A stretch of 64,000 nt of DNA from an uncultured Alphaproteobacteria bacterium (lineage in GTDB: Bacteria > Pseudomonadota > Alphaproteobacteria > Geminicoccales > Geminicoccaceae), in the NCBI GenBank assembly GCA_942491185.1, contig CALOAB010000004.1, forward strand, positions 327,190 to 391,189, in the 5' to 3' direction. The notes below the pieces were generated by a model. It had not been told where the DNA came from and did no database searches. It saw only the letters and a program-made list of their open reading frames with translations. The position numbers and the translations under genes are program-made. Shown piece after piece: positions 9,119 through 64,000 of the stretch; position 1 is the stretch's first letter, and every line of letters begins with the position of its first letter.

Positions 9119-10117
9119 ATGCCCAACGCACCGACCACCCGAGACGATGCCTCGCCGACCGAGATTGCGCCGACCGACATCGTGATCGTCCTCGGCCAGC
9201 TCTTCTCGCTGCTTTCGCTCGCTGTCTGCACCGAGTTTCTGCGCATCGCGAACCGCGAGCACGGCGGCACCTTGTTTCGCCGCCGGATCATCACGGCCGA
9301 CGGTGTGCCGGTGGTCTCGTCGAGCGGCATCGAGATCCGCGCCGACGCTGGCGTCGCCGATATCGGTTTCGCACCGGTCGTCGTGGTGCTGACCTCCTAT
9401 GACCCCGAGGCCGCCTGCACGCCTGGACTGCTCGGTTGGCTCAGATGGCAGGATCGACGCGGTGCGATCCTTGCCTGCGCCGATACGGGGGCGCTGGTGC
9501 TGGCCCGCGCCGGCGTGCTCCGGGACCGGCACGTCGCCGTGCATCACGAGGCGACGCCCGCCTATCGCGAGACCCTTGGCGAAGCGATCCTGCTCGACCG
9601 CGTTCATGCCGTCGACGGCGATCTCTTGTCGAGCGGCGGCGGCATGGCGACGGCCGACATGATGCTGCAGCTCATCCAGCGGCTTGCCGGCCGGGCGCTC
9701 GCCGCTCGCGTCGCGCACGTGCTGAATTACCGGCAGCTTCCGGCCCAGGCACCACCCTCGGGCGTCGGTGGCGACAGTGCCGTGGTGCGCATCGACCGCC
9801 GGCTCGGTCGCATGGTCGAGCTGATGCAGGCACGGATCGAATCGCCGTTGCCGCTGGCGGCGATCTGCCGGCTGACGAAGGTCGACAGCTCGACAGCTCG
9901 CCGATTGTTCAAGCGCCGTTTCGGCACGACGCCGAGTCGCTACTATCTGGGGCTGCGCCTCGAGCGAGCACGGCAGCTGCTGGGCCACGGTGCCCTTGCC
10001 GTCGGCCAGATCGCAACCCTCGTCGGCTTCAGCGATGCCTCGGCCTTCGCCCGTGCCTACCGTCGCCGTTTCGGCGCCTTGCCCAGCGTCGAGCGGCGTG
10101 CGCCGACGGGCAGCTGA
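9119..10117 (+). CDS. GlxA-family (DJ-1/PfpI domain + AraC HTH) transcriptional regulator
   Basis: About 332 aa from ATG 9119. GATase1-like N-domain and a C-terminal AraC HTH (VGFSDASAFARAYRRRFG). Divergent from the dioxygenase gene. Confidence 0.85.
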   Translation: MPNAPTTRDDASPTEIAPTDIVIVLGQLFSLLSLAVCTEFLRIANREHGGTLFRRRIITADGVPVVSSSGIEIRADAGVADIGFAPVVVVLTSYDPEAACTPGLLGWLRWQDRRGAILACADTGALVLARAGVLRDRHVAVHHEATPAYRETLGEAILLDRVHAVDGDLLSSGGGMATADMMLQLIQRLAGRALAARVAHVLNYRQLPAQAPPSGVGGDSAVVRIDRRLGRMVELMQARIESPLPLAAICRLTKVDSSTARRLFKRRFGTTPSRYYLGLRLERARQLLGHGALAVGQIATLVGFSDASAFARAYRRRFGALPSVERRAPTGS

Positions 10118-19877: not shown

Positions 19878-19937
19878 CAGGGCTCTCCTCGACCCGGCGG
19901 GTCCGAGCCCTCGAGCCCGCACCCGCCGCCGAAGCGC

Positions 19938-24183: not shown

Positions 24184-24238
24184 GGAACGCCCTCCCCGCC
24201 TCCCGCCAACCACCACCACCAAAATCCCGAGGGGGCAC

Positions 24239-24257
24239 GGGGGAAATCATTTCCCCC
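24239..24257. terminator. possible bidirectional hairpin between the convergent TPR remnant and moaA
   Basis: GGGGGAA-atcat-TTCCCCC, with T-rich sequence on the plus side and GATTTT on the minus side. Confidence 0.4.
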
Positions 24258-24305
24258 GCTCTTCTCTCGCCTTCCGTCCCCACGTCGGCCGTTGCTTAAG
24301 CCCGT

Positions 24306-25305
24306 TCAGCCGCCGGTGACGCTCATGTGGCGGCCGACTGCGGGTGCCTGGCGGCGGCGGTCGATGATGAAGTCGTGGCCTTTGGGCTTGCGGTCGATGC
24401 CCTTGCGGATGGCGTCGAGCAGGGGGCCGTTGTCCTCCGAGGCGCGGAGCGGGGCGCGGAGGTCGATGGCGTCCTCCTGGCCGAGGCACATGTACATGGT
24501 GCCGGTGCAGGTGACGCGGACGCGGTTGCAGGATTCGCAGAAATTGTGGGTCATCGGCGTGATGAAGCCGAGCCGGCCGCCGGTTTCCTCGATCCGGACA
24601 TAGCGCGCCGGCCCGCCGGTCGAATCCGGCAGGTCGGTGAGCTGCCAGCGCTTGCTCGAGCCGGGCGCGGACCAGCGACAGCGGCAGGTATTGGTCGGTG
24701 CGGTCCTCGTCGATCTCGCCCAAGGGCATGGTCTCGATCAGGGTCAGATCGAAGCCCTCGGCACCGCACCAGGCGATCATCTGGTCGTATTCGTCCTCGT
24801 TGACGCCCTTCAGGGCCACGGCGTTGATCTTGACGTGCAGCCCCGCCGCCTTGGCCGCGGCAATGCCGGCCATCACCTTGTCGTACTTGCCCCACCGCGT
24901 GATCGCCTCGAAGCGGCCCGGCTGCAGGGTGTCGAGCGAGACGTTGATGCGGCGGACGCCGGCTGCGTGGAGGCCTTCGGCGAAGCGCTCGAGCTGGCTG
25001 CCATTGGTGGTGATCGTCAGCTCGCCCAGGGTGCCGGGCGCATCGCCGATCCGCTGGCCGAGTGCCTTGATGAGCGACATCACGTCCCGCCGGACCAGAG
25101 GCTCGCCGCCGGTGAGGCGGATCTTGCGCACGCCGGTCGCGATGAAGGCGTCCGAGAGCCGCTCGAGCTCTTCCAGGGTGAGCAGGTCCTTCTTCGGCAG
25201 AAAGACCATGTTCTCCGCCATGCAGTAGACGCAGCGGAAGTCGCAGCGGTCGGTGACCGAGATGCGGACATACGAGATGTGGCGGCCGAAGCCGTCGACG
25301 AGCAT
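24306..25305 (-). pseudogene. moaA: GTP 3',8-cyclase MoaA, interrupted by a 1-nt frameshift
   Basis: The N-terminal radical-SAM part ([15 protein letters not shown]...) runs from ATG 25305 in one frame. The C-terminal part ([58 protein letters not shown]) is in another frame and ends at 24306. The frames join at about 24651. Confidence 0.85.
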
Positions 25306-25519
25306 GCGTGCCTCCCAGGGCGAAGCGGTAGCGGAGCCCAACGTCCAAAGCGCGAAGCGATCCGGCCGCGATCGACCGGCGGCTGGGCCAATTCACGACT
25401 TTCGAACGATCCTTAAACCTAATAGCTTCCCCTGGCATTGTGAATGGCCGACGATCGACGCGCTGCCGATCGTCCGGCAGACCACGGCAGAAAGCTTGCC
25501 TCATGTACGCTCATATCCG

Positions 25520-49721: not shown

Positions 49722-50483
49722 ATGCTGACCTCCTGGGGACCTTGGAGCAACAAGGCCTATCACCTCGACAAGATGAGCCTGGGTGAACTGATTCGCGCCT
49801 TCTTCACCCATTACTCGATCCAGGCCTATCTGGTGCTGGCGACGCTGGCGATTGCCGTCTCGCTGCTGCTGATGACCAGCTTCTGGCAGCCGCTCATGGC
49901 CGCCATCGTGACCGCAGCACTCTACCCCCTGGTCGAGTATCTGGTGCACCGCTTCCTCTTGCACTCGACCTTCATGTTCAAGCACCGCTCGACCGCCAAG
50001 GTCTGGAAGCGGATCCACTACGACCATCACCAGAACCCGCACGACCTCTCGGTGCTGTTCGGTGCGCTCTACACGACGCTGCCGACCATAGCACTGATCG
50101 CCCTGCCGCTGGGGTGGCTGGTCGCCGGCCCGTCCGGCGCCTTCGCCGCGTTCGCTGCCGCCTGCATCGTGTTTTGCGGCTACGAGTTCGTCCACTGCGT
50201 CCAGCATCTGCCGTTCACCCCAAGCCTCGGCTGGCTACGCAACCTGAAGAAGCGGCATCTGGCCCACCACTTCCACAACGAGCACGGCAATTTCGGCATC
50301 ACCAGCAATGTCTGGGATCACGTCTTCGGCACGTTCTACGCCCAGCCGAAGGACCAGCCGAAGAGCGCCACCGTGCACAATCTCGGCTACACCAGCGACG
50401 CCCGCGCGCAATGGCCGTGGGTGGCGGAGCTATCGGCCGACGACGACACCTACGCCATCCGTCGCCGCCGCCGCGCCGCCTGA
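49722..50483 (+). CDS. fatty acid hydroxylase / sterol desaturase family protein
   Basis: 253-aa membrane protein with histidine boxes HRFLLH, HYDHHQNPHD and HLAHHFHNEH. Confidence 0.8.
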   Translation: MLTSWGPWSNKAYHLDKMSLGELIRAFFTHYSIQAYLVLATLAIAVSLLLMTSFWQPLMAAIVTAALYPLVEYLVHRFLLHSTFMFKHRSTAKVWKRIHYDHHQNPHDLSVLFGALYTTLPTIALIALPLGWLVAGPSGAFAAFAAACIVFCGYEFVHCVQHLPFTPSLGWLRNLKKRHLAHHFHNEHGNFGITSNVWDHVFGTFYAQPKDQPKSATVHNLGYTSDARAQWPWVAELSADDDTYAIRRRRRAA

Positions 50484-50505
50484 ACTCGGCAAGACGGAGC
50501 ATGGC

Positions 50506-51657
50506 GTGGTGAGCCAGAGGCCAAGCTCCGTAGCACTGCAATCCATCCACGATCGCGCCGACCTCAAGGCGTTCATCGAGAGCACACGCGCGATCTATGC
50601 GGATGATCCCTGCTGGGTGCAGCCGCTCACGCTCGAGCGCCTGGACCATCTGAACCCGAAGAAGAACCCGTTCCTCAAGGACATCGAGGCGGCCTACTGG
50701 CTCGTGCTGTTCGATGGCCGCCCGGTCGGCCGCATCTCCGCCCAGGTCAACAAGGCGCATCTCGAGCGCCACCAGGATGCCACAGGCCATTTCGGCTTCA
50801 TCGAGGCGATCGACGACGAGGAGGTGTTCGGCCTCCTGATCGACACCGCCGCTACCTGGCTTCGCCTGCGCGGCATGGAGCGGATGGCCGGGCCGTTCAG
50901 CCTCTCGATCAACGACGAGACCGGCACGCTGCTGAGCGGCTTCGACACACCGCCGCAAATGATGATGCCGCACGGCCAGCCGCATTACGACCGGCGGCTG
51001 CATGAGCAGGGCCTGGTCAAGGCCAAGGACCTCATCGCCTTCCGCATCGATGCCCAAGAGCCCTTCCCACGCGCCGCGTCGCGGCTCATCGAACGGACAC
51101 GAAAGACCGGCGGCCTGACGATCCGACCGCTCGACACCAGCCGGTTCGGCCAGGAGATCGCGCTGATCTGCGACATCTTCAACGACGCCTGGTCGGATAA
51201 TTGGGGCTTCATTCCCTTTGGCGATGCCGAGGCCCAGTATCTGGCGAAGTCGATCCGGCCGCTGGTCAACGGCAGCAATTTCGCGATCGCCGAGCTCGAC
51301 GGCGAGCCCGTCGCCATGACCGTCACCCTGCCCAACCTCAACGAGATGATCGCCGATCTCGACGGCCGGCTCTTGCCCTTCGGCTGGGCCAAGCTGCTCT
51401 GGCGGCTCAAGGTCACTGGCGTCAAGAGCGGGCGGATGCCGCTGATGGGTCTGCGCAAAAGCTGGCAGGGCACGCTCAAGGGCACAGCCGCTGCGATGGG
51501 CGTCATCGAGACCGTGAAGACCTACCACGCCGGCCGCGGCGTGCTCGAGGGCGAGCTGAGCTGGGTGCTGGAGGACAATCAAGCCGTCCAGCACATGATC
51601 GCGGCCGTGGGTGCTGTCCCCTACAAGACCTACCGAGTCTACGAGAAAGCGATCTGA
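50506..51657 (+). CDS. GNAT-fold acyltransferase-like protein of unknown specificity
   Basis: About 383 aa from GTG 50506 (GGAG 7 nt upstream). A conserved-looking soluble protein (FIEAIDDEEVF...GPFSLSINDETG.L..GF...P...MPH...YY...). The family name is not securely recalled. Confidence 0.6.
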   Translation: MVSQRPSSVALQSIHDRADLKAFIESTRAIYADDPCWVQPLTLERLDHLNPKKNPFLKDIEAAYWLVLFDGRPVGRISAQVNKAHLERHQDATGHFGFIEAIDDEEVFGLLIDTAATWLRLRGMERMAGPFSLSINDETGTLLSGFDTPPQMMMPHGQPHYDRRLHEQGLVKAKDLIAFRIDAQEPFPRAASRLIERTRKTGGLTIRPLDTSRFGQEIALICDIFNDAWSDNWGFIPFGDAEAQYLAKSIRPLVNGSNFAIAELDGEPVAMTVTLPNLNEMIADLDGRLLPFGWAKLLWRLKVTGVKSGRMPLMGLRKSWQGTLKGTAAAMGVIETVKTYHAGRGVLEGELSWVLEDNQAVQHMIAAVGAVPYKTYRVYEKAI

Positions 51658-52479: not shown

Positions 52480-53465
52480 GTCTCATCGACCTCGCCCATA
52501 TCACCGACGTGCATCTCGGGCCGGTGCCCCGGGCGCATCTGGGTGAGCTGTTGAGCAAGCGGGCGCTGGGCTACCTCTCCTGGCACCGTCGCCGCCATCT
52601 TCTGCACCGGCAGAGCGTGCTGGACGCCCTGGCGGTGGATCTCGCCGCCGACCCGCCGGATCACATCGCGGTCACCGGCGACCTCGTCAATCTAGCACTA
52701 CCGGGCGAGTTCGAGCAGGCGGCGCGCTGGCTGGCAGCCACCGGCACAGCCGCCGAGGTGACCCTGGTGCCCGGCAATCACGATGCCTACACCGGCAAGA
52801 GCTACCGCCAGGGCTGGACCCGCTGGAGCGCCTACATGCAGGGCGACGGCCAGGCGGTTGGCGGCACGTTCCCCTTCGTCCGCGAGATCGGCCCAGGCCT
52901 CGTTCTCGTCGGCCTCTCGAGCGCCGTGCCGAGCCCCATCGGCTTCGCTTCGGGCCAGCTCGGGCCCACCCAGCTCCTGGCGCTGGACAAAGTCCTGGCC
53001 GAGCTCGGCGATGCCGGGCTTTGCCGGGTCGTCATGATCCATCATCCGCCGCTGGGGCCCCTGATCCGCCGCCGCCGCGCGCTGAAGGACGAGCTGGCGC
53101 TGCGCGTCGTGCTCGCCAGGCGCGGCGCCGAGCTGATCCTCGCCGGCCACCAGCACAGCTTCCTCCTGGGCACCCTGCCGGGCCCCGAGGCACCCGTACC
53201 GATCATTGCCGGGCCATCGGCCTCGCTCGTCCAGAGCCACCCGGAGGCCGGCGGCTATCTGCGCTACGCCATCGACCTTGCGGGCGACCGCCCGTCCATT
53301 ACACTGCAGCTTCGACGCTTCGATCCCACCAGCGGCGGCCTCGTGATCGAGCGAACCGGCCTGCTCGAGATTGCCGGCGACAGGCTCGCCATCCGGCCCA
53401 CGGACTGGCCGAAAAACAAGAGGGAGATCGCGTCCGCCGCAGCCGTCGGCGCCGGCGCCCGATGA
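52476..53465 (+). CDS. metallophosphoesterase
   Basis: Motifs HITDVHLG, VTGDLVN, GNHD, MIHHPP and AGHQH. ATGA overlap on both sides. Confidence 0.8.
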   Translation: MSLIDLAHITDVHLGPVPRAHLGELLSKRALGYLSWHRRRHLLHRQSVLDALAVDLAADPPDHIAVTGDLVNLALPGEFEQAARWLAATGTAAEVTLVPGNHDAYTGKSYRQGWTRWSAYMQGDGQAVGGTFPFVREIGPGLVLVGLSSAVPSPIGFASGQLGPTQLLALDKVLAELGDAGLCRVVMIHHPPLGPLIRRRRALKDELALRVVLARRGAELILAGHQHSFLLGTLPGPEAPVPIIAGPSASLVQSHPEAGGYLRYAIDLAGDRPSITLQLRRFDPTSGGLVIERTGLLEIAGDRLAIRPTDWPKNKREIASAAAVGAGAR

Positions 53466-54706
53466 CGTCCATGCTCGCGACAATCGACCGCTACCTCCTG
53501 GGTCAGGTCATGCGCCCGATGCTGGCCGCAATTCTGATCACGCTGCTCGCCATGCTGGCCGAGCGGGCGCTGCGCGTCATCGATCTGGTCCTCGGCTGGC
53601 GCGGCTCGCTCGCCATCGTCGTCGAGATGATGAGCTACCTCATCCCCCACTACATGGTGTTCGCGCTGCCGGCAGCGCTCTTCTTGGGCATCATGCTCGC
53701 CATTGCGCGGCTGTCCAAGGAAGCCGAGGTCGACGCCATGCGCGCTGCCGGGATCGGCCTGGCGCGGATCACCCGGCCGCTGATGCTCCTCGCCTTCGTC
53801 GTGCTGGTCCTGCACCTGGTGCTGGTGAGCCACCTGCAGCCCTATGCGCGCTACGCCTACCGCGCCGCCGCCTTCGCCATCACCAACGCCTCGTTCCAGA
53901 CCCTGCTGCGCCCGGGCCAGTTCATCACGCTGGGTCAGACCACCTACCGGGTGGACCGGCTGAGCGAGGACCGCGAGCAGTTCGAAGGCATCTTCCTGTT
54001 CTCAGAGGCCGACGCTGACGGGACCATCGTGATCACCGCCGAAGACGGCCGGATCGAGGAGCAGGGTGTGCTGGTGCCGCTGCTGCTGCACCTGGAGAAC
54101 GGCGTCCAGCAATTTGTGCCGCGGCCGGTCGAGGGCGAGAATGGGGGCACATCCTCGAGCAACGGCACGCCGCCACTGACACTCCGCTTCGGCAGCTTCA
54201 CCAGCGACCTCTCGGGCAGCGAGCCAGAGGCGTTCCGGCCACGCGGCGACCACGAGCGCGAGCTGACGATCCCGGAGCTGTTCGGCTTCATCGGCAAGCC
54301 CATCGAGCTCCTGCCCGAAGAAATCAAACCCTGGGAAATCGAGTCCGAGCTCTCGGCCAGGCTCGTGCGCAACCTGTCGATCCTCTTCGTGCCCCTGTTT
54401 GCCCTGCCGCTCGCCCTCTCGCCACGCCGCGCCAAGCGATCTTACGGCTTTCTCATCGGCGTCATCATCGTGGTCGGCTACAACCAGATCATCAGCACCG
54501 GCGAGTCGCTGGCCGACAACAATGAGCTGTCGTCGCTGATCGGCATCTGGCTGCCGTTTGTCGCCTTCGGCCTGGCGACCACCGCCTTCTTCATCCATTC
54601 CGCCAGGCGGGTTCCCGATCCCGGCAAGTCCTCGCTCTTGGGCACGACCATCGATGCGACGGTCAGCATGATCGCCCGACGCCTGCCCTGGCGGGCCGCC
54701 TCGTGA
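53462..54706 (+). CDS. lptF: LPS export ABC transporter permease LptF
   Basis: About 414 aa. IDRYLLGQVMRPMLAAILITLLAML start, six TM helices, and a large periplasmic loop between TM3 and TM4. Confidence 0.85.
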   Translation: MTSMLATIDRYLLGQVMRPMLAAILITLLAMLAERALRVIDLVLGWRGSLAIVVEMMSYLIPHYMVFALPAALFLGIMLAIARLSKEAEVDAMRAAGIGLARITRPLMLLAFVVLVLHLVLVSHLQPYARYAYRAAAFAITNASFQTLLRPGQFITLGQTTYRVDRLSEDREQFEGIFLFSEADADGTIVITAEDGRIEEQGVLVPLLLHLENGVQQFVPRPVEGENGGTSSSNGTPPLTLRFGSFTSDLSGSEPEAFRPRGDHERELTIPELFGFIGKPIELLPEEIKPWEIESELSARLVRNLSILFVPLFALPLALSPRRAKRSYGFLIGVIIVVGYNQIISTGESLADNNELSSLIGIWLPFVAFGLATTAFFIHSARRVPDPGKSSLLGTTIDATVSMIARRLPWRAAS

Positions 54707-55803
54707 AGCTGCTGACCCTGTATCTCAACCGTATCGTGCTGGTCCGCCTCACCGTGGTGACGATCGCCATGGTGCTGTTCGCCATGCTCTTCGACCTGAT
54801 GGATGCCTCGGACGATCTGATCCGCCGGGACGGCCCGGCGATCGTCACGTTCAGCCACTACTTCGTGCTGCGCTTTCCGAGCGTGCTCAACGAGATCCTG
54901 CCCTTTGCAGCGCTGGTCGGCAGCCTGTTTGCCGCCGCCGAGCTGATGCGCAACGGCGAGCTGACCGTGTTCTGGGCGTCGGGCATCTCGCCTTTGGGCG
55001 TGGTGCTGCGCCTCTTGCCGATCTGCCTTCTGGTCCTCGGCATCAAGCTCGCCAATGACGACATGCTGGTGCCCGGCACGGTGCAGGAGCTGCGCAGCTG
55101 GCAGGTCGGCTTCTTCAGCGGCGGCGTCGAAGGCTTCGTCGGCGACAATCTCTGGGTCGCCAGCGACACCCGCTTCATCCGCCTGCCGCGCCTCGACTGG
55201 GGCAAGACCGAGGTGGACGACGTGCTGATCCTCGAGCGCGACGACGTCGGCAACCTGGTCGAGCGAACGACCGCTGCGCACGCCGTCCTCGAGCCCGGCG
55301 CCTGGCGGCTCTCCGGCGTCGAGCGCAGCCGCGTCGGCGACGGGCGCATCGTCCGCGAGGACGAAGCCGTGTTCGAGAACACGATCGACCTCGAGCGGCT
55401 GCGCGTCGCCGCCAACCCGCCGCAGGAGGTGGCGCTGGCCGACCTCGTCGATATCGTCCGCAATGACGGCTACGGCGTCGTCACCACCCAAGGCCATGTC
55501 ACCGCCATCTACCACCGCCTGTTCGGCGCAGCGCAGCCGATGCTGATGATCATGCTGGCCTTCAGCCTGGCCCGCCGGGTCACCCGGCAAGGCGGTGTCG
55601 CCGGACTCTTCATCAAGGGCATCACGCTCGGCTTCGGCTTCGTGATCCTGAGCGGCCTGACGCTGGCGCTGGCCGAGGCCGGTTTTCTCGGCCCACTGGT
55701 CGCTACCGCAGGCCCGATCCTGCTCCTGGCAGCAATCGTCGTCCTCCTGCCGCTCCGCGAGGAACGCGGCCGATTCTTGCGCTTCAGGCCACGCCACGCC
55801 TGA
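54703..55803 (+). CDS. lptG: LPS export ABC transporter permease LptG
   Basis: 366 aa with a GTGA overlap with lptF. LTLYLNRIVLVRLTVVTIAMV start and the same YjgP/YjgQ topology. Confidence 0.85.
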   Translation: MKLLTLYLNRIVLVRLTVVTIAMVLFAMLFDLMDASDDLIRRDGPAIVTFSHYFVLRFPSVLNEILPFAALVGSLFAAAELMRNGELTVFWASGISPLGVVLRLLPICLLVLGIKLANDDMLVPGTVQELRSWQVGFFSGGVEGFVGDNLWVASDTRFIRLPRLDWGKTEVDDVLILERDDVGNLVERTTAAHAVLEPGAWRLSGVERSRVGDGRIVREDEAVFENTIDLERLRVAANPPQEVALADLVDIVRNDGYGVVTTQGHVTAIYHRLFGAAQPMLMIMLAFSLARRVTRQGGVAGLFIKGITLGFGFVILSGLTLALAEAGFLGPLVATAGPILLLAAIVVLLPLREERGRFLRFRPRHA

Positions 55804-56759
55804 TGCGTATCGGCCTGTTGAGCAACACCAGGAGCGAGCGCAACCGCAAGGGCATGACCGGCCTGGCGGCGGTGATCGACCAGGCGCCGGAGATCCTGCA
55901 TCGCCCGTTCCGTCCCGAAGAGGGCTTCGGCCCGCCCTTGCGCGCCATGGCCGAGGCCGGCGTCGAGCTCGTCGTGGTCAATAGCGGCGACGGCACGGTG
56001 CACGGCGTGCTCACCGAGCTGCTCGCTCACCAGCCCTTCGCCACCGTGCCGCGACTCGCCATCCTGCCGCGCGGCATGGCCAATATGAGCGCCGCCGATT
56101 GCGGGCTGAAAGGGTCCGGGCCGGACACCCTGGAGCGACTGCTGACCGCCTGCAGGCGCGGCACGCTCGACGACCACCTGGCCCCGCGCCACGTGCTCAA
56201 GGTCGACTATGCCGATGACCAGGTGGCGCCACGCGGCATGTTCATGGGTGCTGCCGGCATCGTCGACGTCATCAATCACGTCAAAGGCAAGCTGCACAGC
56301 CGCGGCGTCAAGGGCGAGTGGAGCCACGCCGCAGCCATTGTCGGCCTGCTCACCGGGGTGGTCACCAAGGGCTACGCGGCGCTCGGGCTCGAGCCGCACC
56401 AGGTCGGCGTCGCCGCTGACGGGATGCCGCGCCAGGACGAGCGGTTGCTGATCCTCATCGCCACCAGCCTGGAGCGGTTGGTGCTGCGCTCGCGGCCGTT
56501 CTGGGGCACTCGAGGCCGGCCCATCCGCCACATGCGCATCGGCTACGAGCCCAAGCGCCTGATCAGACTGGCGCCGCGCATCCTCTACGGCGACGACGGC
56601 CGAAAGCTGCCCGAGAACGACTACCGCAGCGGCGGCGCAGCCCGGCTCGACCTCTGGCTCGACGCCCCCTTTACGATCGACGGCGAGTTCTTCACACCGA
56701 GCCCTGACCGGCCGGTGCGCATCACCGCCGACGAAATCGTCCGCTTTGTCAGGCTCTAG
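55803..56759 (+). CDS. diacylglycerol-kinase-catalytic-domain (lipid kinase/YegS-like) protein
   Basis: IGLLSNTRSERN...VVVNSGDGTVHGVLTELL...LAILPRGMANMSA is a DAGK_cat/NAD-kinase-fold signature. TGATG overlap with lptG. Confidence 0.75.
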   Translation: MRIGLLSNTRSERNRKGMTGLAAVIDQAPEILHRPFRPEEGFGPPLRAMAEAGVELVVVNSGDGTVHGVLTELLAHQPFATVPRLAILPRGMANMSAADCGLKGSGPDTLERLLTACRRGTLDDHLAPRHVLKVDYADDQVAPRGMFMGAAGIVDVINHVKGKLHSRGVKGEWSHAAAIVGLLTGVVTKGYAALGLEPHQVGVAADGMPRQDERLLILIATSLERLVLRSRPFWGTRGRPIRHMRIGYEPKRLIRLAPRILYGDDGRKLPENDYRSGGAARLDLWLDAPFTIDGEFFTPSPDRPVRITADEIVRFVRL

Positions 56760-57651
56760 CCAAGTGCCCGCTGAACCAGCCACCCTCGAGCAGCTGATCG
56801 AGTCCGAGCTCGACGTACCCATCCCCGACGCCGTCGCGGCCATCGCCACGGCGGCGCGCGCCCGGCACGGCCAAGGTGTCTCGGCCATCCTCTTCTACGG
56901 CAGCTGCTACCGCGACGGCATCGTCGAGGACCGGCTGGTCGACCTCTATCTCCTCGCCGACGACTACCGCTCAGTGCACACCAATCGGATCAGCGCTCTC
57001 GCCAACCGGCTGGTGCCGCCCAATGTCTACTATCTCGAGACCGAAAGCGGCGGGCAAACCGTGCGCTGCAAATACGCGCTGCTCACCATGGCCCAGCTCG
57101 CGGCCAAGGTTTCGATGACCACGGACAACCCCTATTTCTGGGCCCGCTTCGCCCAGCCCACCGGCCTCGTCTGGTGCCGGGATGCGGCCACCAGGGAACG
57201 CGTCATCGACATCATGGGCAAGGCCGTGCGCACCACCTTCGCCGCGGCCCGGGCGCTCACCCACGACATGGCGGCGTCCGAGGCGCTCTGGACCATGGTC
57301 TTCATGGAGACCTACCGGACCGAGCTTCGGGCCGAGAAGCCCTACCGCGCCGCCGAAATCTACCAGAGCGGGGCCAAGCGCTACGACCGGATCACCAAGG
57401 CGCTCATCGCCGAAGGCATCAAGCCGCGCCCGCGCTCCTGGGCCGTGACCCGCCGCAACGGCAAGGCGCTCTCGATCCTTCGCCTGATCAAGGCCGCCTT
57501 CACCTTCACCGCCGGCGCCGACTACCTCGCCTGGAAGATCGAGCGCCACTCCGGCACCCACATCGAGCTCACCGACTGGCAACGCCGCCACCCGATCCTC
57601 GCCTCGCCGCCGATCCTCTGGCGCCTGCTCCGCAGCAAGGCGGTGCGCTGA
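56746..57651 (+). CDS. Tam41/Mmp37-like nucleotidyltransferase-fold protein (tentative)
   Basis: ILFYGSCYRDG...DLYLLADDY...NVYYLE......RCKYALLTMAQL......NPYFWARFAQPTGLV parallels the eukaryotic Tam41 pattern (YGSGV...D.I..V....VY.N......KYGV.....L.....LY.AGRLQKPV). TTG start at 56746 or GTG at 56764. Confidence 0.5.
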   Translation: MSGSSQVPAEPATLEQLIESELDVPIPDAVAAIATAARARHGQGVSAILFYGSCYRDGIVEDRLVDLYLLADDYRSVHTNRISALANRLVPPNVYYLETESGGQTVRCKYALLTMAQLAAKVSMTTDNPYFWARFAQPTGLVWCRDAATRERVIDIMGKAVRTTFAAARALTHDMAASEALWTMVFMETYRTELRAEKPYRAAEIYQSGAKRYDRITKALIAEGIKPRPRSWAVTRRNGKALSILRLIKAAFTFTAGADYLAWKIERHSGTHIELTDWQRRHPILASPPILWRLLRSKAVR

Positions 57652-57668: not shown

Positions 57669-59606
57669 TTAGAGCCCAGCCTTGCGAAAACCATCGAGCA
57701 GGTGACGCTGGTGCTCCGCACCGGTGACGCTGCTGGCGTAGATCTCACTATCGAAGAACGGACTGACCCGGCGCAATTGCACGGCCGAGCTTTCGGCTGC
57801 ATCGTTCTCGCCTAGCTGGGCGTGCGCCGCCGCCAGAATGGCATGTGGGGCTGGATCCTCGTCGAAGTTGCCAGTGAAGCGATCGAACAGAGCAATGACG
57901 TCGGCGTAGCGACCGGCAAGGTAGTAGGCCTGCCCGAGGTCGACGAGCCACCAGGCGAGCGGGTGGGGGTCGAGCTCCAGCGCGAGCTCCAGCGACCCGA
58001 CCGCCGCCTCCGGCCGGCCGGAATTGAGCATGATATTGCCGCGAATCCCATGGCTGAGCGCATCGTTGGGATTGAGCGTCAATGCACGGTCGATGACCGC
58101 TTCGGCCGTTGCGAAGTCTCGATGAAACGCGAGTATGAAAGCGCGCAACGCTTGGCCGGATGCGTTGCGATCATCGAGCTCGATCGCCCGGGACGCCGAA
58201 TCTTGTGCCTGATCGACGGCACGATGCGGCCACTGCGTCCACCCCCAGAGGAAATCGTTCAGCTGGGTCCAGCCGAGACCGACATACGCATCGGCATAGC
58301 CCGGATCGATGGCAATCGCCCGCTCGAAGAACGACCGCGCGTCGTAGTTGGCGCCGCGCTCGACCCGGCGCAGCAGGCTGCGGCCCCGCAGCACGAGGTC
58401 GTAGGCCCCAAGGCTCTCGGTGGGCCTGGCCAGCGCGTCTGCCTGCTCCAACCGGGTCACGCGCACCGCGAGCGCGGCCACCACCTGCTGCGTGATCCGG
58501 TCCTGGACCGCAAAGATATCCTCGAGCTGGTCATCGAAACGCTCGGACCAGAGGAGAACCCCCCGCTGGGCGTCGGTCAGCTCGACGGAGACGCGCAGCT
58601 GATCGCCCGACTGGCGGATCGTGCCGCCGACGACGTAGCGTGCGCCCAGCTCCTCAGCCAGCGCATCGAGCTCGACGGCGCGTCCCTTGAAGGGCGCAAC
58701 AGCGCTCCACGAGAGCACCAGCAGCCCAGAAAAGCGCCCCAGCGCCCGGATGATGTCCTCGCTCACCCCGTCGCTGAAGTAATCCTGAACGCCAGCACCG
58801 CTTTGGTCCCTGAAGGGAAGAACGGCGATCGTCGGCTTGCCGATGCCGGCCACGACTGTGTCGGCGCCACTCTTCCCGTCCGAGATCGCGACGTCACCGC
58901 CTGTCGGCAGCCAATTCGGCGCCAGCGCGACCACGGCGCCAAGAGCCAGAACCGCCGCGGTCGCGGCCAGGGCCACGCGCCATGTCTTTCGACGGCCTGG
59001 AGCCGGTCGTCGGCTGCGGCTCTCGCCCGCCCCTCCGGCAACGGCATAGACCCGGATCGGCTCGGCGATGTTCTTGACGTGGCACAAGCCTCGATCGGTG
59101 AAACCCACATCGAGCTTGCCGGCCGCTTGATCGCGCACCGCACCGGCAACCACGATTCCGCCGGGCTCGGCCAGCGCTTCGAGCCGCGCCGCTACATTCA
59201 CACCGGTACCGAAGATATCGTCGCCGTCGACGATGACATCGCCGAGATTGAGCCCGATCCGAAACAAGAGCTGCTCTTCCGGCGGCACACCGGTATTGCG
59301 CTCGGCAATGGCCCGCTGCATGGCGATCGCCGCAGTGAGCCCCTCCGTCACGCTCGTGAACGTTGCCAGCACGGCATCACCGGCGGTGCCGATCAACCTG
59401 CCGCCATGCTTGTCGAGAGCCGCATCGATCAATTGGCGCGACGCCATCAGCCGCGCATGCGTGCCGGCCTCGTCGAGCTCCATCAGCCGGCTGTAGCCGG
59501 CGACATCGCCATGCAGAACGACCGCGAGCCGGCGCATCGGGCCCTCAGGCCCAGCGCCGCCTGCATGCTCTGCTTCAGCCATCACCGCAGTCTCGCTGAT
59601 CGACAC
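57669..59606 (-). CDS. membrane-anchored class III adenylate/guanylate cyclase with periplasmic TolB-N-like + TPR module (copy 1)
   Basis: Catalytic core LAVVLHGDVAGYSRLM, GTAGDAVLATF and GTGVNVAARLE. One TM (WRVALAATAAVLALGAVVALAP). KPTIAVLPFRDQSG...YFSDGVSEDIIRALGRFSGLLV, then TPRs. Alternative ATG start at 59582. Confidence 0.85.
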   Translation of the reverse strand: MSISETAVMAEAEHAGGAGPEGPMRRLAVVLHGDVAGYSRLMELDEAGTHARLMASRQLIDAALDKHGGRLIGTAGDAVLATFTSVTEGLTAAIAMQRAIAERNTGVPPEEQLLFRIGLNLGDVIVDGDDIFGTGVNVAARLEALAEPGGIVVAGAVRDQAAGKLDVGFTDRGLCHVKNIAEPIRVYAVAGGAGESRSRRPAPGRRKTWRVALAATAAVLALGAVVALAPNWLPTGGDVAISDGKSGADTVVAGIGKPTIAVLPFRDQSGAGVQDYFSDGVSEDIIRALGRFSGLLVLSWSAVAPFKGRAVELDALAEELGARYVVGGTIRQSGDQLRVSVELTDAQRGVLLWSERFDDQLEDIFAVQDRITQQVVAALAVRVTRLEQADALARPTESLGAYDLVLRGRSLLRRVERGANYDARSFFERAIAIDPGYADAYVGLGWTQLNDFLWGWTQWPHRAVDQAQDSASRAIELDDRNASGQALRAFILAFHRDFATAEAVIDRALTLNPNDALSHGIRGNIMLNSGRPEAAVGSLELALELDPHPLAWWLVDLGQAYYLAGRYADVIALFDRFTGNFDEDPAPHAILAAAHAQLGENDAAESSAVQLRRVSPFFDSEIYASSVTGAEHQRHLLDGFRKAGL

Positions 59607-59607
59607 C

Positions 59608-59627
59608 TCACCAATCGGTGACTTGCC
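59608..59627. promoter_or_regulatory. conserved 20-nt block in the cyclase/YHS divergent intergenic region (copy 1)
   Basis: TCACCAATCGGTGACTTGCC contains the palindrome TCACC-aatc-GGTGA. The paralogous block is at 62197-62216. A second shared element, CTGCGA/CTGCAA, lies 17 nt after TGACTT in both copies. Confidence 0.4.
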
Positions 59628-59732
59628 GACCTTAGCACATGCTGCGACACTTTATCCTGTCGTCGTTGTATCTTTCACCGTCTCGCGGGTCGCGCGTTGC
59701 TTCAGATCGTCCGCAGACGGCGAGGAGTGCCC

Positions 59733-60197
59733 ATGTCCCGCACGCTCAACCTGATACTCGCGGCCGCGCTCTTTTTGGCAAGCATCACGGCATGGGTGCC
59801 GGCGGCGCAGGCCGACGAGGCGATCAACACCACCGCCGACAATGTCGCCATCCTCGGCTACGACGCGGTTGCCTATTTCACGGAATCCCAGCCACGCCAG
59901 GGTGATCCCCAATTCGAGCATGTCTGGCAGGATGCCCGCTGGCGTTTCGCCTCGGCCGAGCACCGCGACCTGTTTGCCGCCGACCCGCGCCGCTACGCGC
60001 CGCGTTATGGCGGTTTCTGCGCCGGCGCCATGGCGCTGGGCTGGAAAGCGCCGATCGACCCCGAAGCCTGGACGATCATCGACGACCGGCTCTATCTGGC
60101 CTTCAACAAGCCGGGTATCGACGAGTTCGCCACCGAGCCGGATACCAACATCGCCAAGGCCGACGCCAACTGGGAGCAGCTCGGCCAGACCGAATAG
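59733..60197 (+). CDS. secreted YHS-domain-like protein (copy 1)
   Basis: 154 aa, GAGGAG upstream, signal peptide ending AAQA. LGYDAVAYFT...W.FAS.EHRDLF..DP..YAPRYGGFCAGAMA. C-terminus NWEQLGQTE. Confidence 0.75.
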   Translation: MSRTLNLILAAALFLASITAWVPAAQADEAINTTADNVAILGYDAVAYFTESQPRQGDPQFEHVWQDARWRFASAEHRDLFAADPRRYAPRYGGFCAGAMALGWKAPIDPEAWTIIDDRLYLAFNKPGIDEFATEPDTNIAKADANWEQLGQTE

Positions 60198-60246
60198 CCG
60201 GCTCAACCGCCAGTCGCCGCCTGCCGACGAGCGTACCGGCGACCCA

Positions 60247-62163
60247 TCAAAGACCAGCCTTGCGCAAGCCCTCCAGCACATGGCGACTTTGCTCGGGCGT
60301 GCCGAGCAGGCTCGCGAACGCCTCGGCATTGAAGAACGGAGCCGTCCGGCGGAGCCGATCGACTGCCGCGGCCGCTTGATCGCCCTGGTCGAGCTGCGCA
60401 TGTGAAGCGGCGAGGATGGCGTGCCACAGCGGCTCCTCACGGACCTCGTCGTCGAACCGATCGATCAGCGCGATCGCATCGGCGTAGCGGCCTTCCAGGT
60501 AGTAGGCGCCGACAAGGCTCTGCAGCGAATCGACCGTCGGATTCGGATCGATCTGCAGCGCCAGCTCCATCGACGAACGCGCCACATCGGGGCGACCGGT
60601 GAAGATCGCCACGCTCGCGCGGATCGCCAGGCTCTCGGCGCTGTTGGGATTGAGGTCGATCGCCCGATCGATCTCGCGCTCGGCGCCCGCAAAGTCGCCC
60701 TTGAACTTCAAGACATCGGCCTGCAGCGCATGGGCCGAAGCGTTCTGCGGATCGAGTGCGATCGCGCGCGATGCTTCCGCGTCGGCCGCAGCCAAAGCGC
60801 GATCGGGCCACTGCGTCCAGCCGAACTTGATATCGTTGAGGTAGGTCCAGCCGCGCTCGACATGCGCATCGGCATAGTCCGGATCGATGGCAATGGCGCG
60901 CTCGAACATCTCCCGCGCCTCGAAATTCGTGACACGCTCGAGGCGACGCAGCAGGTCTCGGCCGTGCAGCACGAGATCATAGGCGCCGAGGCTCTCAGTG
61001 GGCTTGGCGAAGGACTGGGCTTGCTCCGCCTGCGTGACCCGAATGGCGAGCGCCGCCACCAGCTGCCGGGTGATCCGATCCTGCAGCTCGAAGACATCGG
61101 CCAGCTCCTCGTCGAAGCGCTCGGACCAGAGCAGCACACCGCCCTCGGCGTCGCTCAGCTGGACATTGACCCGGAGCCGGTCGCCCGCCCGCTGGATCGA
61201 TCCGCTCACGACGTAGCGGGCACCCAGCTGCGCCGCCAGGTCGTCGAGCGGCGCCGGTCCGTCCTTGTAGGGCGCAACCGCGCTCCAGGAGAGCACCAGC
61301 AAGCCCGAGAAACGGCCGAGCGCGCTGATCACCTCCTCGGTCACGCCGTCGCTGAAATACGCCTCGGCCGCCTCGCCGCTACGATCCTCGAACGGCAGCA
61401 CCGCGATCGTGGGCTTGCCCGCAGGGGCAACGGCCTCGGCGGGTGCCTCGTCGGCCGGCGCCACCACCTCCGATTCGCCGACCAGGCCCAACGGCCCAAA
61501 GGTCAGGAATGCACCGAGCCCGCCCACGACGATCACCGCGAGCACGGCTGCCGGCACCAGCATTCGGCGGCGCGGCCGGCGGCGACGCGCACCGCTCGAC
61601 GACGTGCCGACGGCGAAGACGCGAACGGGCTCCTCGATGTTCTTCAGGCTGTGCGCGCCCAAATCCTCGAACGCGACATCGAGCGAACCGGCGCGCTTGC
61701 CGGCGAGCTGGTCGTGCACCGCGGCTGAGACGGCAATGCCGCCGGGCTCCGCCAGCGCCTCGATACGCGCCGCCACATTCACGCCGTTGCCGAACACGTC
61801 GTCACCATCGACGATGACGTCGCCGAGATTGAGCCCGATGCGAAACGCCAGCTGCTGGTCGGCCGGCAACGCCGCGTTGCGCTCGGCGAGTGCGGCCTGG
61901 ATCTCGACCGCCGCCGTCAGCGCCTCGACGACGCTCTCGAAGATGGCGAGCACGGCATCGCCCGCGGTCCCGACGACGCGGCCACGATGCCGAACGAGCC
62001 GCTCGTCGATGACCTGTCGACAGGCCATCAGCCGGGCGTGCGTGCCGGCCTCGTCGATACCCATGAGCCGACTGTAGCCAGCGACATCGGCATGCAGGAT
62101 GGCTGCCAGCCGCCGCGTTGTGCTGCCGCCGGAAATCTGGTCCACAGAACCGGTTTCAACCAC
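60247..62163 (-). CDS. membrane-anchored class III adenylate/guanylate cyclase with periplasmic TolB-N-like + TPR module (copy 2)
   Basis: Same architecture as copy 1 (LAAILHADVAGYSRLM, GTAGDAVLAIF, GNGVNVAARIE, one TM, KPTIAVLPFEDRSG...YFSDGVTEEVISALGRFSGLLV, TPRs). Collinear similarity along the whole length. Confidence 0.85.
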   Translation of the reverse strand: MVETGSVDQISGGSTTRRLAAILHADVAGYSRLMGIDEAGTHARLMACRQVIDERLVRHRGRVVGTAGDAVLAIFESVVEALTAAVEIQAALAERNAALPADQQLAFRIGLNLGDVIVDGDDVFGNGVNVAARIEALAEPGGIAVSAAVHDQLAGKRAGSLDVAFEDLGAHSLKNIEEPVRVFAVGTSSSGARRRRPRRRMLVPAAVLAVIVVGGLGAFLTFGPLGLVGESEVVAPADEAPAEAVAPAGKPTIAVLPFEDRSGEAAEAYFSDGVTEEVISALGRFSGLLVLSWSAVAPYKDGPAPLDDLAAQLGARYVVSGSIQRAGDRLRVNVQLSDAEGGVLLWSERFDEELADVFELQDRITRQLVAALAIRVTQAEQAQSFAKPTESLGAYDLVLHGRDLLRRLERVTNFEAREMFERAIAIDPDYADAHVERGWTYLNDIKFGWTQWPDRALAAADAEASRAIALDPQNASAHALQADVLKFKGDFAGAEREIDRAIDLNPNSAESLAIRASVAIFTGRPDVARSSMELALQIDPNPTVDSLQSLVGAYYLEGRYADAIALIDRFDDEVREEPLWHAILAASHAQLDQGDQAAAAVDRLRRTAPFFNAEAFASLLGTPEQSRHVLEGLRKAGL

Positions 62164-62196
62164 GATGCTCTCTCAACGGCCTACCTTCGGACAACA

Positions 62197-62216
62197 TCAC
62201 GAATCATTGACTTGCC
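62197..62216. promoter_or_regulatory. conserved 20-nt block in the cyclase/YHS divergent intergenic region (copy 2)
   Basis: TCACGAATCATTGACTTGCC matches 17 of 20 positions of the block at 59608-59627 and includes a TTGACT hexamer. Confidence 0.4.
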
Positions 62217-62291
62217 TGTCCCGGCAGCAACTGCAATTTATGCAAGTACGCCAAGTGATTTGGTAGGCTTAACAGATTCTTGGAGTCGCGT

Positions 62292-62756
62292 ATGGCCCTC
62301 GCCCCGACGAACCGCGCCCTGGCCGCCGTCTTCGGCGCCGCTCTCGGCATGGCAACCCTCGTCGTCCAGGCTGGCGAGGCGGTCAACACCTCGCCCGACG
62401 ATGTCGCCATCCAGGGCTATGACCCGGTCGCCTACTTCACCGAATCACGCCCGGTAAAGGGCGACCCCGCCATCGAGGAAGAGTGGCAGGGTGCCCGCTG
62501 GCAGTTTGCCACGGCCGAGAACCGCGCCTTGTTTTCCGAGAACCCCGACCAGTACGCCCCGCGCTACGGCGGCTTCTGCGCCGGCGGCGTTTCGCTCGGT
62601 CGCAAGGCACCGATCGACCCGGAGTCATGGGTGATCGTCGACGGCAAGCTCTTCCTCGGCGGCTCGAGCAACGCCATCGACTACTTCACCACCGATGGCG
62701 AGGACCGGATGGCCAAGGCCGACACCAACTGGGAGCAACTCGGCCAGACCGAGTGA
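62292..62756 (+). CDS. secreted YHS-domain-like protein (copy 2)
   Basis: 154 aa from ATG 62292 (TGGAG upstream) with a signal peptide. QGYDPVAYFT...YAPRYGGFCAGGVS. C-terminus NWEQLGQTE, identical to copy 1. Confidence 0.75.
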   Translation: MALAPTNRALAAVFGAALGMATLVVQAGEAVNTSPDDVAIQGYDPVAYFTESRPVKGDPAIEEEWQGARWQFATAENRALFSENPDQYAPRYGGFCAGGVSLGRKAPIDPESWVIVDGKLFLGGSSNAIDYFTTDGEDRMAKADTNWEQLGQTE

Positions 62757-62802
62757 GCGACAGATCGGCCTGATCGCCGGCCGCCGTGACGAGACCGGCG
62801 GT

Positions 62803-64000
62803 TCAGTCGGTCGTCGTCATTCCCTTCCCTGTGCTGAGACGAAGCGGGTCGAGGAAGCTCGGCTCGAACCCCGCAAGCTGGACCAAGCGGTCACGATCGT
62901 GGAACGCCACGTAGCCTTGCTTGAAGGTCAACGCACCCATGCGGCGGAGCTCGCGCAGCATGCGGTTCACGTGGATCGACGTCAGCCCCAGCGCGTCGGC
63001 CAGATGCTCCTGGGTCAGCGGACAGCGAAAGCCGTCGTCTCCGGCCAAGAGAACGAGCTTCAAGCGCTCGCCCAGCTCGAGCAGGAGATGAGCCAAGCCG
63101 GCCATCGCCGAGCGGCGACCGGTGCTCACCAGATGCTGCTGGATGATCGCCTTCTCGCGGGCGCCCGACCAATGCAGTAGCTGCGACAGCCGCCCGGGCG
63201 CGTGCTCCAATTGCTCCAGCGCTCGCTCGTCGAGCTTGCCGACCAGGCAATCGGTCAGCGTGACCGCGACTGTCCCGGGCACGGGAATAACGCCGAAATG
63301 ACTGCCGACGAGATCGCCCGGCAGATGAAAATCGATGATCTGCCGGCTGCCGTCGGCCAGGAGATGATAGGAGTGGGCCCAGCCATTGCCGATGACCACC
63401 GGCGGCCGGCCGATCGTCTCGCCATCGACCAGCGGCACCCGTGCCGGCACGAGCTGCTGACGTTGCTCCAGTGCCGCAAGGCGTGGGATGTCCTCTTCGG
63501 CGAGCAGGCCGATACCGGTGAACTTGCGCACCAGTGCGGTGATCCCGCGGCTCAACGGCTCGGCATTCTTCACCGGCTGCGGTGGGCGCTCGGCCAGCTT
63601 GTCGAGCAGCAGATCGCGGTTCTCGCTGGCCAGTAGGTCAGCCGCCAGGCTCTTCTTGCCGTTGAGCGCGAACGAGGCGCCGGTAAGGCCGACGATGTCG
63701 CCGGCAACATCGCGCAGCGGCTCGAGATGCACATCGAAGCGAAACGTGCCTTGGTCGGTCTCGATGGTCACCACCTCGCGGACCGCCTTGCCGGTCTCGA
63801 TCACCTGCCGCTTGAGCGCTTCCACCTCGGTCGCCGAGTTCGCTGGCATGAGCTCCGCATCGGTCCGACCGAGCACGGCGGCCGTGTCGTAACCGATGGT
63901 CGGGTTGTGAATCCACGTGTAGCGAAGCGCCCGGTTCTGCTGAAACAGTGTTATGGCGGTGTCGGCAAGGGCCACCTCCAGGCGGCGCCTGCTCGTCTCG
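62803..64000 (-). CDS. PAS domain + cyclic-nucleotide-binding domain + Crp/Fnr-type HTH regulator (5' end probably outside the window)
   Basis: C-terminal HTH (LTQEHLADALGLTSIHVNRMLRELRRMG), central cNMP-binding-like beta-barrel (...YHLLADGSRQIIDFHLPGDLVG), and an N-terminal PAS-like part (LFQQNRALRYTWIHNP...). The frame is still open at base 64000. Confidence 0.8.
   Translation of the reverse strand, partial: ETSRRRLEVALADTAITLFQQNRALRYTWIHNPTIGYDTAAVLGRTDAELMPANSATEVEALKRQVIETGKAVREVVTIETDQGTFRFDVHLEPLRDVAGDIVGLTGASFALNGKKSLAADLLASENRDLLLDKLAERPPQPVKNAEPLSRGITALVRKFTGIGLLAEEDIPRLAALEQRQQLVPARVPLVDGETIGRPPVVIGNGWAHSYHLLADGSRQIIDFHLPGDLVGSHFGVIPVPGTVAVTLTDCLVGKLDERALEQLEHAPGRLSQLLHWSGAREKAIIQQHLVSTGRRSAMAGLAHLLLELGERLKLVLLAGDDGFRCPLTQEHLADALGLTSIHVNRMLRELRRMGALTFKQGYVAFHDRDRLVQLAGFEPSFLDPLRLSTGKGMTTTD

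Follow-up and report, generated by a model that had tools for sequence, protein, structure and literature searches.

Tandem cyclase and YHS genes in the window

The stretch of DNA analysed here, referred to as the window, comprises 64,000 nucleotides from an uncultured alphaproteobacterium of the Geminicoccaceae (contig CALOAB010000004.1, forward-strand positions 327,190 to 391,189). It carries two copies of a gene pair in which a one-pass class III nucleotidyl cyclase (cyc1, cyc2) is encoded next to a small secreted protein of NCBIfam family NF041384, 'YHS domain-containing (seleno)protein' (YHS1, YHS2; Table 1). The four open reading frames (ORFs) listed in a preliminary description of this DNA were all found intact, and the ATG starts assigned there to the small proteins agree with close homologues, which are also 154 amino acids (aa) long. 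For cyc1, close cyclase homologues of 637 aa suggest the ATG at 59582 as an alternative start, which gives a 637-aa product. In a near-identical 234-kb contig (L161), the cyc1 orthologue (7925-9797) is called as two ORFs of 422 and 214 aa, implying a frameshift: the assembly is in error there, or the gene is a pseudogene in that strain.

The segments 57669-60246 and 60247-62802 aligned end to end, confirming the two collinear units of ~2.55 kb described earlier, with ~64% nucleotide identity over the whole length. At the protein level the cyclases share 60% identity and the YHS proteins 56%. Together, the collinear alignment and these protein identities indicate that the complete unit, with its intergenic region, was duplicated in tandem long ago, and exclude a chance resemblance. 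YHS1 is divergent from cyc1, with a gap of 126 bp, and is also convergent with cyc2, with 49 bp between the stop codons; which genes make up the unit, and hence whether the cognate partner of YHS1 is its divergent or its convergent neighbour, is therefore ambiguous.

Table 1. Positions of the cyclase and YHS genes, their parts and related loci. Positions without a locus label refer to the window; AF2, AlphaFold2.
Feature	Position	Strand	Remarks
cyc1, one-pass class III nucleotidyl cyclase	57669..59606	-	645 aa; ORF, Pfam and AF2 model
cyc1 periplasmic sensor module, Cys-free	57672..58835	-	TolB_N-like alpha/beta (residues 258-390) and TPR solenoid (398-641)
cyc1 single transmembrane helix, residues 204-227	58926..58997	-	AF2 helix; hydropathy; Arg/Lys-rich segment before helix
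cyc1 catalytic (CHD) domain, residues 23-189	59040..59540	-	alignment to 3MR7 and Ma1120, invariant columns, model
Divergent intergenic region 1 (cyc1/YHS1)	59607..59732	.	carries shared motif TCACCAATCGGTGACTTGCC at 59608-59627
YHS1, secreted NF041384 member, Cys form	59733..60197	+	154 aa; NCBIfam, alignments, AF2
YHS1 signal peptide	~59733-59813	+
YHS1 codon of invariant Cys96	60018-60020	+
cyc2, cyclase paralogue, architecture as cyc1	60247..62163	-	638 aa; ORF, Pfam, alignment and tree
Divergent intergenic region 2 (cyc2/YHS2)	62164..62291	.	carries shared motif TCACGAATCATTGACTTGCC at 62197-62216
YHS2, secreted NF041384 paralogue	62292..62756	+	154 aa
YHS2 codon of Cys96	62577-62579	+
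PAS-FixK/FNR-type transcription regulator	62803..64000	-	cut by window end; probably outside the conserved module
Selenocysteine (TGA) forms of the YHS protein	L014 8001-8438; L019 1615-2082; L020 8001-8417; L059 8001-8459
Loci of the ankyrin variant	L024, L032, L035, L037, L040, L044, L058, L065, L070, L079; L163 4304-4897; L164 4342-4935

Domains, topology and active site of the cyclases

The two window cyclases scored 38.1 and 45.7 bits with Guanylate_cyc (PF00211; gathering score 21.9), and a phmmer comparison with the solved class IIIc enzyme 3MR7 gave 1e-39. An AlphaFold2 model of cyc1 (predicted local distance difference test score 85.6) resolved the individual domains, with a disordered linker between the transmembrane helix and the alpha/beta domain. 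The modelled catalytic domain superimposed on 3MR7 with a Foldseek TM-score of 0.90, and with scores of 0.86-0.92 across 3MR7, Rv1900c and Ma1120. At the other end of the protein, TPR_2, TPR_17, TPR_14 and TPR_19 scored above the Pfam threshold, and the model showed 14 helices at residues 398-641. The preliminary description had given the cyclases one transmembrane helix and a TolB-N-like plus TPR ectodomain. The helix and the TPR part hold. The TolB_N matches (PF04052; 19.4 and 16.7 bits) are below the threshold of 22.4. Residues 258-390 form a compact alpha/beta domain in the model; a fold search with the whole model was dominated by the CHD and TPR parts. The periplasmic module also gave partial matches to the NCBIfam models of HilA/EilA and CadC.

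Topology was examined across the 32 cyclases found paired with a YHS gene in the surveys described below. All 32 have one hydrophobic helix between the domains, with on average 4.7 Lys/Arg residues on its N-terminal side versus 1.4 on its C-terminal side. By this positive-inside bias around a single helix, the catalytic domain is cytoplasmic and the alpha/beta and TPR module lies outside.

The active site of cyc1 contains the metal-binding residues Asp34 and Asp77, Gly73 at the substrate-Lys position, Asp130, Asn137 and Arg141. As the preliminary description had stated, the class III catalytic residues are kept: cyc1 and cyc2 both have the two metal Asp, the Asn and the Arg, which are invariant in 119/119 relatives. 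With this conservation and the close match of the modelled CHD fold to 3MR7, the window cyclases are likely to be catalytically active. What had been missed is that the purine-specifying Lys is replaced by Gly (GTAGD) in both enzymes, while the specifying Asp (D130) is kept; they have neither the Lys/Asp pair that specifies adenine nor the Glu/Cys-type pair for guanine. Lys occupies this position in 63/119 relatives; among the paired cyclases the residue is Lys in 14, Gly in 9, His in 6 and Asp in 3. This variation led us to reject GTAGD as a character shared by the entire paired clade; judged from the alignment, Gly is a trait of the sub-branch to which the window enzymes belong. Since the specifying Lys is Gly here and the position is variable, the nucleotide product, cAMP or other, cannot be read from the sequence.

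The small proteins are full-length members of a selenoprotein family

The label 'YHS-like' given earlier to the small proteins was right about the relation to YHS domains but too weak: both matched NF041384 over positions 1-112 of its 113, with scores of 144.6 and 141.4 bits (cutoff 70). The Pfam YHS model (PF04945), by comparison, scored 24.4 bits with YHS2, below its gathering score of 30.3, and gave no match with YHS1. The family comprises 5,066 representatives at 50% identity (E <= 1e-10). YHS domain proteins were described as a new selenoprotein family by Zhang and Gladyshev (2007; PMC1976440), were seen again in the Global Ocean Sampling data (PMC2398784) and appear with the motif GxU in a review of 2026 (PMC13188914); none of these papers assigns the family a function.

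A signal-peptide-like hydrophobic region precedes the domain in 33 of 34 paired small proteins, in agreement with the signal peptides proposed earlier, and the secreted part is ~127 aa long. Combined with the topology of the cyclases, this bears out the expectation that the small protein and the cyclase sensor module should meet in the periplasm. Cys96 is invariant across 70 aligned sequences, within the motif YAP(R/Q)YGG(F/Y)(C/U), and is the position at which other family members carry selenocysteine; exactly one Cys or selenocysteine is present in the mature protein of 32/34 paired members. Four homologues (L014, L019, L020 and L059) have TGA in place of the Cys96 codon, and two of these, L014 and L019, are cyclase-paired. 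Hairpins lie 15-20 nucleotides downstream of the TGA in all four, with a near-identical stem, AGCCGUGG...CCACGGCU, in L020 and L059; folding of these candidate selenocysteine insertion elements gave modest z-scores of -0.3 to -2.0.

The cysteine motif of TRASH/YHS domains is absent from the small protein. Together with the presence of a single Cys that is selenocysteine in some homologues, this makes redox or ligand chemistry more plausible than a classical metal site, and the metal-binding role previously suggested appears weak. The AlphaFold2 model of YHS1 (score 89.4) had no whole-domain neighbour in fold searches, which returned only local matches to the YHS motif of toluene/phenol hydroxylases, and no solved structure was matched by sequence. 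The C-terminal tail NWEQLGQTE, conserved between the window proteins, was considered as a TPR-docking peptide and rejected, as the tails differ among paired proteins. Paired and unpaired YHS clades differ mainly in a 'DIPGxI...NWP' motif, which unpaired members typically have and paired members lack; a single alignment column passed the filter for discrimination between the two.

The pair is conserved between dedicated clades of both families

The YHS alignment was scanned against one genome per species, yielding at least 592 loci, of which the best 80 were examined. Cyclases at these loci were detected by tblastn with the window cyclase; a homologue was counted as full-length when it contained both the catalytic and the periplasmic part, and as paired when it lay within 1 kb of the YHS gene. 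Full-length homologues were found at 25/80 YHS loci and within 1 kb at 24/80; among loci with at least 2.5 kb on both sides, 16/60 were paired. Paired loci occurred in Alphaproteobacteria (rhizobia, Rhodospirillales and a sphingomonad), Arenicellales, Acidiferrobacterales, 'Muproteobacteria', Nitrospinae and Desulfobacterales. About 18 were convergent and 5 divergent. Co-location of the two genes across genomes, suggested earlier as a check, was thus observed, but the divergent arrangement expected with it is the minority form. An unbiased clustering of all ORFs neighbouring YHS at the 80 loci returned the cyclase as the only widely recurring real neighbour. The second recurrent neighbour, a secreted ankyrin-repeat protein, was confined to the rhizobial branch. 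Alternating cyclase/YHS arrays like that of the window were also present at L001 and L010, the pair having been amplified as a unit independently in these lineages.

Annotated plasmids of Ensifer adhaerens and Ruegeria conchae carry genes for ankyrin, YHS (seleno)protein and adenylate/guanylate cyclase in that order, the cyclase being convergent. This three-gene ankyrin-YHS-cyclase variant, found in the Rhizobiales/Rhodobacterales branch (Table 1), has a small ankyrin-repeat gene ~14 bp directly upstream of YHS, and its cyclase has a C-terminus ~90 aa longer.

In the reverse test, a YHS neighbour was found for 8/80 metagenomic cyclases of the same architecture. This low frequency is explained by the confinement of paired cyclases to one clade. 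In a tree of 115 periplasmic modules, all 32 paired cyclases fell within a single clade of 40 leaves (32 paired, 3 unpaired and 5 half testable), and 0/75 were paired elsewhere; pairing required 4 Fitch steps, compared with a mean of 19.4 and a minimum of 13 in 1,000 permutations. Likewise, all 34 paired YHS proteins formed one clade, with 2 steps compared with a permutation mean of 25.7 and minimum of 17, and in the single exception the cyclase is 5 kb away. Both window cyclases and both window YHS proteins lie inside the paired clades. The module thus belongs to two dedicated subfamilies that are inherited together, and is no general property of either family.

YHS proteins outside the pair

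Unpaired YHS members adjoin genes for DinB_2, VTT, DoxX and ferric-reductase-TM/Rieske proteins. On a plasmid of Rhizobium sp. WSM4643 (L162, 4929-8200), an unpaired YHS gene stands in an apparent operon with genes for a hypothetical protein, DsbD and a DsbA-family protein. We considered this context as support for a redox role and rejected it, as it was found on this one plasmid and at 0/80 genome loci. No YHS-cyclase fusion of the Rosetta-stone kind was present among the best 150 protein representatives. Other fusions occur: P0263, a TIR protein with a transmembrane segment, has two Cys-containing YHS domains at its extracytoplasmic end, and P0262 joins an HbpS-like domain to two YHS domains. 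P0343 has a TPR/YHS-like/TPR arrangement with DUF2610 in which the Cys is replaced by Ala; its TPR similarity is only generic. As hints, the fusions and neighbours fit an outward-facing sensory or redox role, without proving one.

YHS proteins co-diverge with the periplasmic module of their cyclases

Pairwise distances between YHS proteins (31 pairs) correlated with those between periplasmic modules at r = 0.82, compared with r = 0.56 for the catalytic domains of the same proteins. The partial correlation of YHS with the periplasmic module, given the catalytic domain, was 0.73 (p <= 0.0005), and the converse partial correlation was 0.20. Subsampling the periplasmic alignment to the length of the catalytic domain gave r = 0.80 +/- 0.02, while the maximum reached in bootstraps of the catalytic domain was 0.62. 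Both parts of the module contributed (alpha/beta, r = 0.74; TPR, r = 0.79). With adjacency across phyla, clade confinement, independent amplification and this co-divergence, functional coupling of the cyclase and the YHS protein, as proposed in the preliminary description, is strongly supported.

The periplasmic part of 26/32 paired cyclases, both window copies included, contains no Cys, while unpaired relatives mostly have 1-5. A disulfide relay between the partners was therefore rejected as a candidate mechanism: with paired periplasmic modules mostly Cys-free, a covalent thiol relay is excluded and any interaction would be non-covalent.

A proposed co-sensor mechanism

We propose that the small protein works in the periplasm as a co-sensor and gates the cyclase by way of the TPR module of the latter, and that a conserved two-gene module for envelope signalling is present in the window as two paralogous copies; we assign this reading a probability of about 0.55. 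In outline, the small YHS protein, exported by the Sec pathway, would bind the TPR and alpha/beta module non-covalently. A change at its Cys/selenocysteine centre, such as oxidation, adduct formation or ligand binding, possibly with homodimerization, would alter this interaction and so shift the dimerization or orientation of the cytoplasmic catalytic domains, changing the output of cyclic nucleoside monophosphate (cNMP). The product is probably cAMP, although specificity is uncertain in a sub-branch whose specifying Lys is Gly, and the cNMP receptor would be encoded elsewhere in the genome. Direct binding of the YHS protein to the periplasmic module may reasonably be inferred; the direction of regulation is putative, and any assignment of the signal, be it redox, electrophile, metal(loid) or other ligand, is speculative. 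A more specific form of the proposal, in which the YHS (seleno)protein is a thiol/selenol sensor whose Cys/selenocysteine is oxidized or modified, for example as a disulfide- or diselenide-linked homodimer, and signals through the TPR module to the class III cyclase, is put forward only tentatively.

Several observations weigh against the co-sensor proposal. Only ~30% of YHS-family loci are cyclase-paired, and only 8/80 cyclases of this architecture are YHS-paired, so that the core biochemistry of the family is not cyclase-specific. Most pairs are convergent, and such an arrangement does not imply co-transcription. The co-divergence could partly reflect domain-specific rates or recombination of the catalytic domain. 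Paired proteins share no C-terminal tail that would suggest a classical TPR-peptide dock, and with Gly in place of the substrate Lys, activity and product are uncertain for the two window enzymes. For a redox signal the Cys/selenocysteine site is the sole argument, the DsbD/DsbA context having been met once and at none of the 80 genome loci.

It is also possible, with a likelihood well below that of a co-sensor, that the two genes are linked without contact between their products. The YHS protein would then act in the periplasm as a stress or redox enzyme and be an output or a parallel effector, one that responds to the same condition as the cyclase, is regulated together with it or has its expression controlled by the cyclase's cNMP. 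Most YHS members have no cyclase neighbour and adjoin genes such as DinB_2, DoxX, ferric-reductase-TM/Rieske or, in one operon, DsbD/DsbA, and selenoproteins are mostly enzymes (PMC2398784). Joint regulation finds a candidate element in the window: both divergent cyclase/YHS intergenic regions contain the motif TCACnAATCnnTGACTTGCC, which could be an operator or promoter element common to the divergent genes, and its first copy contains a perfect inverted repeat, TCACC-N4-GGTGA. L002 has a similar element (TCACGAAGCGATGA...TTGCC), which divergent loci at greater distance lack; the motif was rejected as an operator of wide conservation, since it is limited to both window copies and L002, and a joint operator that is not kept beyond the closest relatives does little for this alternative. 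Linkage without contact also leaves unexplained that the divergence of YHS follows the periplasmic module far more closely than the catalytic domain, and that dedicated clades of both families travel together in either orientation.

An improbable alternative is that the YHS protein serves as a dedicated maturation, folding or stabilizing factor of the periplasmic module, that is, a structural partner or chaperone that carries no signal. Tight clade-specific co-inheritance and co-divergence with that module would be expected of such a factor too, and paired modules without Cys cannot be stabilized by disulfides of their own. However, the invariant Cys/selenocysteine, with costly selenocysteine forms also at the cyclase-paired loci L014 and L019, is hard to justify in a passive protein. 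Moreover, related cyclases without a partner are abundant, and stand-alone YHS proteins are widespread in the family.

The neighbouring regulator is most likely incidental

The preliminary description had closed the module with the PAS-cNMP-HTH protein encoded next to YHS2, a Crp-like regulator that would act as receptor for the cNMP made by both cyclases and so complete a self-contained cassette. This version is less probable still. Its appeal lies in position, the regulator gene lying 46 bp from YHS2 in an arrangement that is the same in the near-identical contig L161, and in membership within the CRP/FNR superfamily. This gene runs off the end of the window; its orthologue in L161 (13060-14733) encodes 557 aa and has an additional N-terminal PAS domain. 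However, NCBIfam matches point to FixK, Fnr and FnrL, and among solved structures the protein is closest to FixK2 and FNR, and no CRP-type receptor matched at E < 0.001. The Pfam cNMP_binding match (25.3 bits) is below its threshold of 27.5, no significant alignment to Escherichia coli CRP was obtained, and the segment corresponding to the phosphate-binding cassette, GDLVGSHFGVIPVPGTVAVTLTD, contains no Arg. A homologue of the regulator was found within 8 kb of YHS at 0/80 genome loci, and no regulator family recurs there. We therefore rejected this protein as the cNMP receptor on both conservation and sequence; it is most likely an incidental neighbour, and the claim of a self-contained module is not upheld.

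Finally, an adjacency that is functionally meaningless, due to inherited synteny or chance in two large families with many cyclase paralogues in soil Alphaproteobacteria, is effectively refuted by its occurrence in several phyla, in two orientations, with a variable third partner (ankyrin) and in independent arrays, by the permutation tests on both trees, and by the 24 paired loci observed where random placement would, as a rough inference, give fewer than 1 in 80.

Surroundings of the locus

The remainder of the window is ordinary alphaproteobacterial chromosome, with genes for transporters, aconitase, an EipB-like protein and LptF/LptG. Elsewhere in the window there are no other cyclases, cNMP-binding proteins or selenocysteine machinery; Rfam and tRNA scans of the window gave no matches, and a promoter/terminator scan returned nothing significant in or near the locus. 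A string of overlapping plus-strand genes (53371-57651), encoding LptF, LptG, a DAGK_cat-type lipid kinase (55803-56759) and a 301-aa protein without a Pfam or NCBIfam match (56746-57651), stops 18 bp short of the cyc1 stop codon, and its gene order is the same in L161. Three long ORFs with coding-like third-position GC content, at 18711-19937 (-), 23080-24246 (-) and 50248-51657 (+), had no Pfam match at E <= 1e-5. The second of these, immediately downstream of a radical SAM gene (24247-25392), stands out by its first-position GC, which at 0.86 is unusually high.

Comparison with known systems

One-pass regulators of the ToxR/ToxS, CadC and HilA type, and the CpxP/CpxA and HbpS/SenS systems, combine a periplasmic sensor with accessory-protein logic. 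The window pair resembles them in its N-terminal cytoplasmic output domain, single transmembrane helix, periplasmic sensor and small partner encoded next door. The output differs, being a cyclase here and a DNA-binding domain or kinase in those systems. ToxS, CpxP and HbpS belong to families unrelated to YHS; a fusion of an HbpS-like domain with YHS domains exists (P0262).

With the class IIIc adenylyl cyclases of Silicibacter pomeroyi (3MR7), Mycobacterium tuberculosis (Rv1900c, LipJ) and M. avium (Ma1120), the window enzymes share the catalytic fold, metal Asp, Asn, Arg and specifying Asp, but have Gly for the specifying Lys. Their CHD domain is N-terminal and is followed by a transmembrane helix and a periplasmic TolB_N-like/TPR sensor, whereas those of known structure are soluble domains or are joined to different partner domains. 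Among receptor cyclases, CyaD1, CyaD2 and CyaK of Sinorhizobium meliloti act with the envelope protein NsrA and the cAMP/cGMP receptor Clr (PMC7529298, PMC4222275, PMC10127613). There too a class III cyclase with extracytoplasmic sensing needs a separate envelope protein, and the regulator is encoded elsewhere. The S. meliloti sensors, however, are CHASE2 or other types, not TolB_N/TPR; NsrA is outer-membrane-associated rather than a small soluble Cys/selenocysteine protein; and no clade-wide gene adjacency has been reported. In Vibrio vulnificus, the TPR domain of RcbA/RcbB represses a nucleotide cyclase, the product of the adjacent gene relieves the repression and the pair is conserved across taxa (PMC12282931). 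TPR gating of a nucleotide cyclase, the adjacent-gene partner and the conserved pairing are common to both systems, but RcbA/RcbB involve a GGDEF diguanylate cyclase, are cytoplasmic and polar, have a partner that is itself a TPR protein and lack a Cys/selenocysteine centre. By analogy, then, accessory-gated logic of the kind proposed here has precedents in RcbA/RcbB, NsrA with CyaK, ToxS, CpxP and HbpS, none of them with this pair of families.

Within NF041384, the window proteins are full-length members with the invariant Cys at the selenocysteine position; they differ from the family at large as Cys forms in a distinct, cyclase-paired clade. The papers we found on the YHS selenoprotein family mention no link to cyclases, and our literature searches returned no paper describing the cyclase/YHS pairing, in agreement with the view in the preliminary description that it had not been characterized. 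Receptor-type class III cyclases with TolB_N/TPR ectodomains gave more than 7,850 matches in one search, and we found no characterization of such a cyclase in the literature.

Significance

The analysis removes a tempting yet unsupported part of the story, the neighbouring 'cNMP-binding' regulator, and leaves a conserved, clade-specific pairing that provides a first concrete functional partner for each family, the YHS selenoprotein family having been an orphan since 2007. If the Cys/selenocysteine centre is the sensing element, the pair would link cAMP signalling to the redox or selenium biology of the periplasm and would add a new kind of accessory-protein-gated receptor beside those of ToxS, CpxP, HbpS, NsrA and RcbA. 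Should the YHS protein prove to be a thiol/selenol sensor, a redox sensor from a selenoprotein family would directly gate cyclic-nucleotide synthesis across the inner membrane, and the organism from which the window derives would run two diverged channels of this kind.

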